Positions 45,359 to 48,301 of a DNA stretch of 64,000 nt are shown here, one piece after another. The notes beneath the pieces are model-generated. The model made no database searches. It worked only from the letters and a program-made list of their open reading frames with translations, and had not been told where the DNA came from. Made by a program: the position numbers and the translations under genes. Every line of letters starts with the position of its first letter. Position 1 is the first letter of the stretch. Origin of the DNA: Gammaproteobacteria bacterium (GTDB lineage Bacteria > Pseudomonadota > Gammaproteobacteria > Ga0077536); assembly GCA_021773835.1 (NCBI GenBank), contig JAJFJQ010000035.1, positions 109,781 through 173,780 of the forward strand. Reading direction: 5' to 3'.

Positions 45359-48301
45359 ATGGATAAAACGACTAAACCGGTACTCTTTTTTCTATTTTCC
45401 CTCTCGGGATTTGCCGGATTGATTTACGAGTCAATTTGGGCGCATTACATCAAGCTTTTGCTAGGCCACGCAGCCTACGCACAGACGCTTGTTTTATCGA
45501 TCTTTATGGGGGGGATGGCAATTGGAGCCTGGTTCGTAGGTCGGAAGTCAACCCGAATATCGAATCCGCTGATGTACTACGTATTAATTGAGGTTGTCAT
45601 TGGTCTATTTGGTATTTTTTTCCACCAAGAGTTTCTGTTAGCGAAAGAGTTCCTATTTCACGTTGCCTTACCTACGATTGACTCGGCGGTTGTTGCCTCA
45701 ATAACTAAGTGGCTTATCGCTACCATATTATTGTTACCTCAGGCGGTTTTACTCGGCGCAACGTTTCCACTTATGAGTGCCTCAGTTATCCGTTTCGACC
45801 GGTCCGCCTCTGGTCGGACATTAGGAATGTTGTATTTTGCAAATAGCATCGGCGCGGCGGTCGGCGTGCTGGTCAGTGGTTTTTTCCTAATCGAAACCTT
45901 CGGGTTGCCCGGTACTAGTTTTACCGCAGGCATCATTAATATTGGCTTGGCGACATTTGTGTGGCCCGTGGCACGCCGCTTGAATGCGACAAAGCCGGTG
46001 GAAAAACGTGTCATAGAAACCGAGGTGGGTGCTACGCTAGTTTTACTGACGTCAATCGCCTTTCTGACGGGACTTGCATCGTTTTTTTACGAAATCGGTT
46101 GGATCAGAATGCTGAGTTTGGTTTTAGGTTCATCCAACCAGGCGTTCGAGCTGATGTTAAGCGCATTTATCTTGGGCCTTGCGCTGGGCAGCTTCTACAT
46201 ACGTAACCATGCCGACAGGTCAACAAATCTCGTCATAAAGTTGGCCTGGATACAGATAATCATGGGCGTTGCCGCGACGGCAACATTACCAATGTATGCA
46301 CATGCTTTTGAGTGGATGGGTTTTCTACGAAATGCGTTGGCACTTAGCGACGAAGGATATTTATTTTTCAATGTCGGTAGTCATTTAATTGCAGTCGCGA
46401 TCATGCTACCAGCCACATTTATGGCAGGTATGACCTTGCCGCTGCTCACGAATAGCTTGTTGCGTTCGGGTTACAGTGAGGGGGCTATTGGTCGCGTCTA
46501 CGCTGCTAACACCTTAGGCGCAATAATCGGGATTACCATAGCCATCAATGCATTGATGCCACTGATCGGAGTCAAAGGCTTGATCGTAACTGGCGGTCTC
46601 GTCGATGTTTTCGCTGGCTATGTACTTTTAGCCAAATTCCGTGACCGGGAGAGCGCGGTGTGGAAGAGCGCGTTGCCCGCCATCGCGACTCTTGGGGGGG
46701 TCGCGATATTGAGCCTAACGACATTCGATCAGGCTGTACTATCGTCCGGCGTGTACCGATTCGGTAGTGCTGCATTACGGAGCATAGAAAAACCCGTCTT
46801 TTATCAAGATGGTAAAACTGCCACCGTCGCAGTCATACAACAATCAAACGGCGTTACCAGTATTCGTACTAATGGCAAGACCGATGCGCTGATCAATCCG
46901 TTAAGCGAGCCATACTCGAGTGATGAAATTACGATGGTTATGGCCGCGGCATTACCGTTAATGTTCAATCCGGGTGCCCGTGAAGTAGCCAACATTGGTA
47001 TGGGTTCAGGGCTAACCACTCATGCGCTACTAGCAAGTAACACCATCGAGCGGGTTGATACTATCGAGATAGAGCAAGCGATGGTCACGGGTGCGCGTTA
47101 TTTTGGCGCAAGCGTTGAACGTACATTCAATGATGCGCGTAGCCACATCTATATTGATGATGCAAAATCATTTTTTTCGAACCATCGCAAACAATACGAC
47201 GTTATAGTTTCCGAACCATCGAACCCTTGGGTTAGTGGTGTCGCCTCGTTGTTTACGCAAGAGTTTTATGAACATGTTTCAAACCACCTTAGCGCCGGAG
47301 GAGTGTTCGTCCAATGGCTGCAACTCTATGAGACAAATATCAACAATATAGGATCTGTGATTAAGGCTTTAGACGCCGTATTCGTAGACTATCGTATTTA
47401 CAATACCGATGACGCCAATATTCTGATTGTAGCGAGCGGTGATGAAGGTCTTCGTAACCTCGATTCGTCGGTGTTTAATCAGATCGGTATGGAACGCGAA
47501 TTAACCCGTGTCGGAATCGATACGATCGATGACCTAGCGATCCGTTATGTTGGGAACAGAAAAAATTTAGGCAGGTTTCTTCGAAAAGCTGCCGCACCGG
47601 TAAATTCAGACTACTTTCCCTTCCTAAGCTACCAGTCGCCGGTTAGTTTCTATAAGCGCGAACACGCCACGGAAATTCGTTCGCTGCATACATCTCCATT
47701 ACCGTTGTTATTTTGGGTTAACCGAAAGCACCCAATAGAACAATTGAGCCGAGCAGGAAAGTTTTTCACGGTATATGAAAAAAATCTTGTCGCTCGCCAA
47801 GTTGTTGAGCACGCTGTAGCGGAAACGCGAAATAATAAATTAATATTCTCGTTCCGCAGGCTAAGCGATCAACTACTTGATTGCCAACAATCGTCGGCTC
47901 AAGACGGTACCCTCAAGGATTCGTTGTTTACGATCGCGGAAACAATCAATCCGTATCTATCAGAGGCCGAGTTGTCAATATTTTGGGATTCGCTAATGGA
48001 CACCTGCGCGACACCAAACCTCACCACGGAACAGAAAAATTGGTTACTTCTACACCGAGCAATTGGTAAAGGCGACCTTAACGATGTTGTCATTTATGGC
48101 CAAAAAATTCTGGGAAGTACTACCGCGCTCGAGGCTTACGAGCATCATTATGTCCTAGGCGCTTCGCTTGCAAGCAATTACCTCGTTGGAGATCAAGCAG
48201 CATCGGCTTCGCTATTGCGACAATATTATGACGTCGATCGTTATGGTCAGTCACCGCTCTATCTAATGTATCTGATCGACCTGGTGACACCGACGCCCTA
48301 G
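45359..48301 (+). CDS. Fusion protein: polytopic (MFS-like) membrane domain + spermidine-synthase-like (aminopropyl/methyltransferase fold) domain + C-terminal helical domain
   Basis: 980 aa. Residues about 1-480 carry about 12 hydrophobic helices. Residues about 520-720 carry spermidine-synthase-family blocks (NIGMGSGLTTHALL, ERVDTIEIEQAMV, YDVIVSEPSNPWVSGVASLFTQEFYEHV). The last about 250 aa are helical and repeat-like. Confidence 0.7.
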   Translation: MDKTTKPVLFFLFSLSGFAGLIYESIWAHYIKLLLGHAAYAQTLVLSIFMGGMAIGAWFVGRKSTRISNPLMYYVLIEVVIGLFGIFFHQEFLLAKEFLFHVALPTIDSAVVASITKWLIATILLLPQAVLLGATFPLMSASVIRFDRSASGRTLGMLYFANSIGAAVGVLVSGFFLIETFGLPGTSFTAGIINIGLATFVWPVARRLNATKPVEKRVIETEVGATLVLLTSIAFLTGLASFFYEIGWIRMLSLVLGSSNQAFELMLSAFILGLALGSFYIRNHADRSTNLVIKLAWIQIIMGVAATATLPMYAHAFEWMGFLRNALALSDEGYLFFNVGSHLIAVAIMLPATFMAGMTLPLLTNSLLRSGYSEGAIGRVYAANTLGAIIGITIAINALMPLIGVKGLIVTGGLVDVFAGYVLLAKFRDRESAVWKSALPAIATLGGVAILSLTTFDQAVLSSGVYRFGSAALRSIEKPVFYQDGKTATVAVIQQSNGVTSIRTNGKTDALINPLSEPYSSDEITMVMAAALPLMFNPGAREVANIGMGSGLTTHALLASNTIERVDTIEIEQAMVTGARYFGASVERTFNDARSHIYIDDAKSFFSNHRKQYDVIVSEPSNPWVSGVASLFTQEFYEHVSNHLSAGGVFVQWLQLYETNINNIGSVIKALDAVFVDYRIYNTDDANILIVASGDEGLRNLDSSVFNQIGMERELTRVGIDTIDDLAIRYVGNRKNLGRFLRKAAAPVNSDYFPFLSYQSPVSFYKREHATEIRSLHTSPLPLLFWVNRKHPIEQLSRAGKFFTVYEKNLVARQVVEHAVAETRNNKLIFSFRRLSDQLLDCQQSSAQDGTLKDSLFTIAETINPYLSEAELSIFWDSLMDTCATPNLTTEQKNWLLLHRAIGKGDLNDVVIYGQKILGSTTALEAYEHHYVLGASLASNYLVGDQAASASLLRQYYDVDRYGQSPLYLMYLIDLVTPTP

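Follow-up and report, generated by a model that had tools for sequence, protein, structure and literature searches.

A predicted periplasmic spermidine synthase-like domain fused to a major facilitator superfamily transporter is a recurrent neighbor of type IV pilin genes

Bacterial proteins that join a membrane domain of the major facilitator superfamily (MFS) to a domain resembling the spermidine synthase SpeE are catalogued as 'fused MFS/spermidine synthase' (NCBIfam NF037959), and the related PRK03612 model describes a membrane-anchored 'polyamine aminopropyltransferase'. We analyzed one such gene (hereafter the fusion gene; positions 45359–48301, + strand) in a 64,000-nucleotide stretch of DNA from a Gammaproteobacteria bacterium (contig JAJFJQ010000035.1, positions 109,781 to 173,780; hereafter the window). 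The gene encodes a 980-amino acid protein whose subfamily, compared with NF037959, adds a C-terminal domain of about 285 residues that is found nowhere else. The original prediction made for this gene had called such fusions functionally uncharacterized. This remains the case: NF037959 names the architecture alone, and no paper on the family was found in literature searches. A match in a census of Myxococcus and Streptomyces transporters proved to be a different MFS protein.

The fungal enzyme NHMT (Aspergillus nidulans AN4663) consists of seven transmembrane (TM) helices and a methyltransferase domain similar to spermidine synthase (SpdS), and it methylates the N-terminal His of secreted lytic polysaccharide monooxygenases; its membrane domain is required for activity and was limited to Pezizomycotina in BLAST searches (PMC10349129). 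We consider NHMT to be probably the closest characterized functional analog of the fusion protein. In both, a polytopic membrane domain is followed by an SpdS-like domain without the acidic residue of the GxG(D/E)G motif. Compared by description, NHMT is nevertheless eukaryotic, resident in the endoplasmic reticulum and equipped with seven TM helices reported to be unique to fungi, whereas the fusion protein is bacterial and has a full 12-TM MFS domain plus one helix as well as the extra C-terminal domain. AT3-SGNH O-acetyltransferases of the OafA/OafB type and MBOAT systems such as DltB use a polytopic membrane domain to pass an activated group from a donor in the cytoplasm on to an extracytoplasmic catalytic domain, fused or partnered, that decorates surface glycans. 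Their relay logic is the one that we propose below for the fusion protein, but their folds are different, they move acyl groups from acyl-CoA or a carrier protein rather than drawing on a presumed S-adenosylmethionine (SAM)-type donor, and there is no homology. TfpO/PglL, TfpW, PptA and TfpX/Y/Z share with the fusion gene a position immediately next to the major pilin gene. The enzymes among them, with O-antigen ligase-like, glycosyltransferase-C (GT-C) or sulfatase folds, draw on lipid-linked or lipid donors already present in the membrane, and none of the proteins in this group has an MFS or SAM-fold domain, unlike the fusion protein. Three features of the fusion protein were not found in the literature searched, namely an enzyme domain that is predicted to be periplasmic, the loss of the SpeE-specific residues with the cofactor pocket kept, and the recurrent position next to pilin genes.

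The open reading frame (ORF) of the fusion gene begins with ATG, and in alignments its Met1 coincides with the first residue of about 90 full-length homologs. With 90 homologs as input, AlphaFold 2 (AF2) returned a model with a predicted local distance difference test score (pLDDT) of 91.8 and a predicted template modeling score (pTM) of 0.90. The three-part architecture that had been claimed at the outset, with a polytopic membrane region, a spermidine synthase-like domain and a C-terminal helical region, was confirmed by the ORF, by scans with hidden Markov models and by the AF2 model. All segments lie on the + strand. Residues 1–215 (positions 45359–46003) form the N-lobe of the MFS fold with TM1–6, and residues 216–428 (46004–46642) the C-lobe with TM7–12; the 12 helices are thus arranged as two homologous six-helix lobes, and the duplication is recognizable from their sequences (27% identity over 184 residues, E = 1e-23). 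An additional helix, TM13 (about residues 434–458; 46658–46732), leads from the cytoplasmic end of the MFS domain to the predicted periplasmic side and is supported by hydropathy, by a helix at residues 434–451 of the AF2 model and by positive-inside statistics. The SpeE-fold domain follows at residues 461–695 (46739–47443) with an N-terminal β domain and a Rossmann core, and the C-terminal helical domain occupies residues 696–980 (47444–48298).

In the scans, the Pfam model Spermine_synth matched residues 528–676 at 66.9 bits (cut-off 22.9), whereas the MFS_1 match, at 15.3 bits, stayed below its gathering threshold of 33.4; precomputed matches to this family (PF07690) are present in a minority of the homologs. 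NF037959 was matched at 79.5 bits (cut-off 40, E = 2.1e-22), and in the fusion protein, as is characteristic of this family, a membrane domain with the MFS fold precedes a SpeE-fold domain in a single polypeptide. By contrast, the equivalog cut-offs of true aminopropyltransferases were missed widely (PRK03612, 144.7 vs 472; PRK00811, 84.1 vs 260; TIGR00417, 69.9 vs 249.55). A search of 5.8 billion proteins gave more than 7,600 matches to the fusion protein. The best 120 homologs, all 960–1,060 residues long and 43–65% identical, belong to Gamma- and Betaproteobacteria and Desulfomonilia or were found in many metagenomes; homologs in Aliikangiella, Competibacteraceae and Chitinivorax carry the name fused MFS/spermidine synthase. 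Carriage of the fusion gene by phages was considered and rejected, the sole phage matches being ordinary speE genes.

To judge the likely chemistry of the SpeE-fold domain, we audited its residues in 90 family members spanning 42–65% identity, using alignments to solved SpeEs and to an ordinary soluble speE product from Candidatus Scalindua (locus L002) that served as the canonical comparator. The adenosyl-binding positions, Gly547, Gly549, Gly551, Glu570 (ribose) and Asp601 (adenine), are present in all 90 members. Motif I (G547-M-G549-S550-G551; 46997–47011) is equivalent to the GGG(D/E)GG motif of SpeE, and its position 550 aligns to GGGDGG of Plasmodium SpeE and GGGEGA of the L002 protein; the acidic residue is replaced by Ser in 88 members and by Ala or Thr in the other two. 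The catalytic-loop motif E619-P-S-N622-P-W624 (47213–47230) is equivalent to D-S-x-D-P of SpeE. Here the catalytic Asp is replaced by Glu619 in every member and the second, diamine-binding Asp by Asn622 in 87 of the 90, and Thr525 invariably takes the place of the catalytic Tyr. We take the catalytic Asp, second Asp and catalytic Tyr to be D170, D173 and Y76 of Thermotoga maritima SpeE. Pro620, Ser621, Trp624, Gln652, Trp653 and Tyr657 are each found in 90 of 90 members. Relative to canonical SpeE (PF01564; PDB 1inl, 3o4f, 2o06, 1uir), the domain therefore differs by Asp to Ser, Asp to Glu, Asp to Asn and Tyr to Thr changes, in addition to being membrane-tethered, transporter-fused and predicted to be periplasmic.

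These results bear on the original prediction in two ways. The acidic D-x-x-x-E/D region to which it had pointed is not a canonical SpeE catalytic block, since the two Asp residues have become Glu619 and Asn622. On the retention of cofactor and substrate residues the outcome was divided: the adenosyl-binding side is complete, and the residues that select decarboxylated SAM (dcSAM) or face putrescine are gone (Ser550, Thr525, Glu619 and Asn622). The Asp or Glu of GxG(D/E)G is required in a true spermidine synthase, where it holds the amine of the dcSAM aminopropyl group and keeps SAM out, and its loss has been argued to mark a protein annotated as SpdS as a methyltransferase (PMC10349129). Because the family has exchanged four SpeE-specific residues for others that are themselves fixed in the 90 members, aminopropyl transfer from dcSAM by the fusion protein is unlikely, and a SAM-type donor appears more plausible. 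The pattern is most likely that of a live pocket with a chemistry different from that of SpeE, in which a carboxylate base is kept and SAM rather than dcSAM is bound. The residue audit also suggests that the proteins of this family are misnamed as 'spermidine synthase'. In Cupriavidus metallidurans CH34, a distant relative (about 27% identity over residues 22–760) has the motifs GLGTGI and LEPPPP and thus the same residue pattern, so the wider MFS-fused group probably does not consist of true SpeEs either. Methyltransferases of the METTL13 N-terminal type were absent from the matches of the domain in PDB profile searches, which places it closer in sequence to true SpeEs than to the METTL13 branch.

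Three lines of evidence converge on a periplasmic location of everything after about residue 460. MFS folds have both termini in the cytoplasm. The fusion protein has 13 hydrophobic helices by hydropathy and in the AF2 model, and one helix beyond the MFS fold would hence carry the polypeptide across the membrane. The loops on the side of the N-terminus contain on average 12.5 Lys and Arg residues, compared with 3.5 on the other side (90 members). The third line is the distribution of Cys residues: the C-terminal domain has exactly two in 67 of the 90 members and none in 17, a paired pattern that comprises C842 and a second Cys near residue 885 in the fusion protein, and the SpeE-like domain is free of Cys in 85 members. 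The SpeE-like and C-terminal domains are therefore probably periplasmic, as a prediction. On this topology, the domain would have no access to cytoplasmic dcSAM and diamine substrates. The original prediction of a membrane-coupled use of dcSAM or SAM had not addressed topology; with the domain predicted to lie in the periplasm, where there is no free SAM or dcSAM, the mechanism would have to differ.

Conservation is distributed unevenly over the protein. Mean pairwise identity is 56% and 51% for the two MFS lobes, 58% for the Rossmann core and 35% falling to 22% in the C-terminal region. About one third of the MFS positions are at least 90% conserved, including the charged residues Glu24, Glu78, Glu245, Glu264, Arg145 and Arg250 in or near predicted helices. 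Polar residues of the N-lobe that are invariant or almost so, located within or close to the predicted helices, are Glu24, His37, Gln42, Glu78, His89, Arg145, Tyr159 and Asn162, and in the C-lobe Tyr244, Glu245, Trp248, Arg250, Glu264, Tyr381 and Asn384 are invariant. Such conservation, which extends to acidic and basic residues, argues that the membrane domain is not a mere anchor. The C-terminal domain is family-specific and hypervariable; when searched alone against 1.84 billion cluster representatives, it was found only at the C-terminus of the same family or of its N-truncated fragments. No solved structure matched these last 285 or so residues in PDB profile and structure searches. The expectation of a C-terminal helical repeat domain held in part, as the region is predicted to be helical with high confidence (from the whole-model pLDDT) and no tetratricopeptide repeat (TPR) or other repeat family was detected in it. 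The fast evolution of the domain is what one would expect of a specificity module whose partner varies.

The genomic context of relatives was sampled in 80 metagenomic loci retrieved with a family profile and in 11 Pfam-annotated contexts obtained by exact look-up. Per 100 kb, ORFs with a pilin motif numbered 10.0 at distances of up to 1.1 kb from the gene, 1.5 at 1.1–3 kb and 0.4 at 3–10 kb. Pilin genes are thus enriched about 24-fold within 1.1 kb of the homologs (12 loci observed vs 0.67 expected, P = 9e-12), and the linked pilins are without exception type IVa major pilins of the classical kind, many of them encoded as tandem pairs. When pilS and pilB/C/D were counted too, a type IV pilus gene was present in 7 of the 21 metagenome loci that have at least 5 kb on both flanks. 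Among the 11 annotated contexts, eight are type IV pilus loci from diverse lineages, and the other three (L005, L087 and L089) have glycosyltransferase clusters and no type IV pilus genes next to the fusion gene. No speD, metK or polyamine genes were found in these 11 contexts. When neighboring ORFs were clustered over 84 loci, contigs of high G+C contributed long spurious ORFs that confounded the result, and only the clusters of pilins and of TfpW-like proteins (described below) could be interpreted.

The arrangements at pilus loci vary. In L090, the order pilR-pilA-two TfpW-like genes-fusion gene is identical to that of the window. The order is fusion-pilS-pilR-pilA-pilB-pilC-pilD in L088 and pilS-pilR-pilA-sulfatase-domain gene-fusion in L092. 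In the TARA Oceans contig L091, the fusion gene (3896–6850) stands in the order pilB-pilC-pilD-fusion-coaE; 34 bp separate its start from pilD and its stop codon overlaps with the beginning of coaE, so that it lies inside an otherwise conserved pilBCD-coaE block. TfpW-like proteins co-occur with the fusion gene in the window and in L004, L043 and L090. The pilin-linked members are scattered over the family tree and over genomes of 36–69% G+C, a distribution that argues more for a functional link than for one gene order inherited in common. For a substantial part of the family, the link to pili is secure. In the neighborhood survey, the association with pili that had been proposed from this one locus proved stronger than claimed, and glycosyltransferase clusters were often neighbors as well. 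The 626-residue sulfatase-domain protein encoded between pilA and the fusion gene in L092 (5914–7794) has the fold that we take to be that of PptA-type pilin phosphoethanolamine/phosphocholine transferases; given this neighbor, the fusion gene would co-occur with different classes of candidate pilin modifiers. In L004 (Aliikangiella maris), the gene immediately upstream of the fusion gene has Acyl_transf_3 and SGNH domains (OafA/OafB-type trans-membrane O-acetyltransferase; 7864–9801), and downstream are two pilin genes, a TfpW-like gene and a cluster resembling nonulosonic-acid biosynthesis.

Our tentative interpretation is that the fusion protein is an inner-membrane, export-coupled group transferase belonging to a modification apparatus of the type IV pilus or of surface glycans. 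The MFS domain would move a cationic SAM-type donor out of the cytoplasm and pass it on to the periplasmic domain fused to it, and this latter domain would transfer a group, most likely methyl and possibly 3-amino-3-carboxypropyl, to an acceptor exposed on the periplasmic face. The acceptor may be the globular part of the membrane-anchored pilin or a glycan on the pilin, with the fast-evolving C-terminal domain supplying acceptor specificity. We favor a role of the MFS domain as a cofactor conduit and not as an anchor because there is no periplasmic pool of SAM and because this domain is as conserved as the catalytic core. Several observations weigh against the interpretation. We know of no bacterial periplasmic SAM-dependent enzyme and of no SAM-exporting MFS protein, and literature searches for either found none, which lowers the prior. 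The topology is a prediction, and the cofactor, the transferred group and the acceptor are putative. Only about 15–35% of the family is linked to type IV pilus genes in cis; most members are encoded elsewhere, many of them in unrelated contexts, and three annotated contexts have glycosyltransferase clusters only. Because many members are not pilin-linked, the acceptor may be a glycan or another envelope component instead of pilin. The wider superfamily of MFS proteins with SpdS-like domains also has other contexts that do not involve pili, such as the MoxR/VWA genes of Cupriavidus. The architecture and the conclusion that the fusion protein is not an aminopropyltransferase are much more secure than the full mechanism.

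The same export-coupled transferase could act on a general envelope glycoconjugate or lipid, such as O-antigen, capsule, exopolysaccharide or a lipid head group, with pilin loci as frequent landing sites. We regard this as rather unlikely. It would account for the glycosyltransferase clusters beside the gene in the window and in L004, L005, L087, L089 and L090, for the fact that most family members are not beside pilin genes, and for the lower G+C (46%, down from about 52%) of the gene and of the island of glycan genes that follows it in the window; the invariant Trp624, Trp653 and Tyr657 could stack on sugars. On the other hand, pilus linkage occurs without nearby glycan genes in L091 (between pilD and coaE), L088 (before pilS) and L003, and the enrichment peaks sharply within 1.1 kb of the pilin gene. 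A similarly low likelihood attaches to a non-catalytic role, in which the protein would be an accessory protein or pseudoenzyme without group transfer, and its periplasmic SpeE-fold and helical domains would serve as a chaperone of pilin or of pilus assembly, in the manner of TfpY, or would sense a ligand and gate the transporter accordingly. Such a role would fit the expected lack of SAM in the periplasm, the non-enzymatic nature of several accessory proteins encoded next to pilA (TfpY/X/Z; PMC11841053) and the hypervariable C-terminal domain, as expected of a pilin-binding surface. The GxGxG motif and residues Glu570, Asp601, Glu619, Asn622, Trp624, Gln652, Trp653 and Tyr657 are, however, invariant or nearly so, which would be unusual for a dead enzyme, and the MFS domain keeps charged residues in or near its predicted helices that are typical of active transporters.

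The model of the original prediction, a cytoplasm-facing aminopropyl- or methyltransferase that uses cytoplasmic dcSAM or SAM to decorate a lipid-linked glycan or the pilin before export, is improbable in our assessment even though the SpeE fold, the retained adenosyl-binding residues and the adjacency to glycan genes agree with it. TM13 after the MFS fold, the charge difference of 12.5 vs 3.5 and the paired Cys residues all speak for a periplasmic position of the domain. The domain retains neither the Asp that selects dcSAM, nor the catalytic and the diamine-binding Asp, nor the Tyr, and a mere anchor would need no fully conserved 12-TM transporter. Least credible is a genuine polyamine system, in which the SpeE-like domain would make or modify a polyamine that the MFS domain exports or imports. 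The family name, the aminopropyltransferases as closest sequence relatives and the amine transporters among the best structural matches of the MFS domain would be in keeping with such a system, but all four SpeE-specific catalytic and selectivity residues are replaced, the domain is predicted to lie across the membrane from dcSAM and putrescine, and there are no speD, speA/B/C or pot genes in the 11 annotated neighborhoods.

If the fusion protein is an export-coupled transferase, it would enable a chemistry that depends on a cytoplasmic cofactor, and is normally impossible in the periplasm, through the fusion of transporter and enzyme; by delivering a SAM-type donor, it would do for methyl groups what the AT3-SGNH and MBOAT relays do for acyl groups. 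A candidate function would become available for more than 7,600 proteins that are now labeled 'spermidine synthase', and a new candidate pilin accessory gene would stand beside tfpO, tfpW, pptA and tfpX/Y/Z, with a bearing on resistance to pilus-specific phages, adhesion and antigenic variation. It is conceivable, though doubtful, that this would be the first bacterial extracytoplasmic SAM-dependent transferase, that its own MFS cofactor exporter makes up for the lack of SAM in the periplasm, and that, through a so far unrecognized methyl or aminocarboxypropyl modification of type IV pilin or of the pilin glycan, it adds a new arm to pilus diversification and phage evasion.

In the window, the genes pilS, pilR, pilA, two TfpW-like genes and the fusion gene follow each other in the same direction on the + strand. 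The two-component regulator of pilin expression, pilS-pilR (37415–40397), was recognized by the Pfam domains 6TM_PilS, HisKA and HATPase_c and by Response_reg, Sigma54_activat and HTH_8, respectively. The pilA gene (40722–41150), the first of the co-directional run that leads to the fusion gene, encodes a type IVa major pilin of 142 residues with Pilin and N_methyl domains and a C-terminal disulfide loop. It is followed by the genes for the TfpW-like proteins A (661 residues; 41298–43283) and B (655 residues; 43285–45252), which combine a membrane half with a TPR half and are 46% identical to each other. The gaps from pilA to the gene for protein A, on to that for protein B and then to the fusion gene are 147, 1 and 106 bp, such that a single base separates the stop of protein A from the start of protein B. 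The fusion gene probably forms one unit with pilA and the two TfpW-like genes.

TfpW of Pseudomonas aeruginosa, encoded directly downstream of pilA, has about 650 residues and about 11 TM helices; its N-terminus is cytoplasmic, its first periplasmic loop carries a DDx motif, and its C-terminal TPR domain is periplasmic (bioRxiv 10.1101/2020.04.19.049825). Proteins A and B have this architecture with respect to length, position straight after pilA, the residues D36-D37 after TM1 and a TPR domain at about residues 425–654. D36-D37 is invariant across 74 homologs of protein B, the AF2 model of protein B had a pLDDT of 93.6, and a Cys pair (C529 and C535) is nearly invariant in the TPR domain of the family. 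Of the 3,098 homologs of protein B, a few carry the JGI name O-mannosyl-transferase. The membrane half is covered by no Pfam or NCBIfam family, and homology to GT-C enzymes was not found in searches of Pfam, NCBIfam, PDB sequences, PDB profiles and Foldseek, except that one of 74 members gave a marginal match to PMT (E = 7e-4). The PDB profile and Foldseek searches returned TPR proteins only, and the TPR half may mask the TM half in such searches. The earlier assignment of these neighbors as GT-C transferases is therefore not confirmed: the proteins match the published TfpW architecture, but apart from the marginal PMT match, sequence and fold searches detected the TPR domain alone. We call them TfpW-like by architecture.

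The fusion gene is followed directly by a convergent WecB-like gene and then by the glycan-biosynthesis island (48365–60099), which encodes WecB-like epimerases, GT4 and GT2 glycosyltransferases, a Wzx-like flippase, a sugar O-methyltransferase, a LegC/PseC-family aminotransferase and a NeuD-type acetyltransferase. The position of the fusion gene between membrane-protein genes and a glycan island, as first described, was thus confirmed, with pilA and the genes for the 655- and 661-residue proteins on one side. G+C falls from about 0.51–0.55 upstream to 0.455–0.47 across the fusion gene and the island (positions 44000–56000), which suggests that the island, and perhaps the fusion gene too, was acquired horizontally. 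A scan of 40.4–50.1 kb for promoters and terminators gave nothing above shuffled controls, and neither a tRNA nor an obvious boundary repeat was found in the window, so the operon and island boundaries are provisional. The convergent Epimerase_2 (WecB-like) gene (48365–49453, − strand) scored 177.8 against a wecB equivalog cut-off of 210 and is without the last part of the domain; a further Epimerase_2 gene at 52208–53344 (+ strand) gave a full-length strong match. The LegC/PseC-family aminotransferase and the NeuD-type acetyltransferase hint at a pathway to a nonulosonic acid or a di-N-acetylated sugar. On the other side of the locus, a gene of the GDSL/SGNH lipase-acylhydrolase family encoding 402 residues (36104–37312) is located directly upstream of pilS.

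Some further observations concern loci other than the window. The distant relative on the second replicon of C. metallidurans CH34 (L093; 7752–10424) lies, as judged by eye, amid MoxR AAA, DUF58-like and VWA-TPR (Bat-like) genes, and the ORF translations, again by eye, reveal a gene similar to formylglycine-generating enzymes upstream. In Geobacter sulfurreducens, GSU2502, which is annotated as 'spermidine synthase', adjoins omcT and omcS, which encode nanowire cytochromes, and shares the regulation of these two genes (PMC10599522). The Competibacteraceae-like context L089 contains a DNA polymerase III alpha gene (12025–16914) that is interrupted by an intein with a LAGLIDADG homing-endonuclease domain, such that its product has 1,629 residues compared with 1,171 for the intein-less ortholog in L005.

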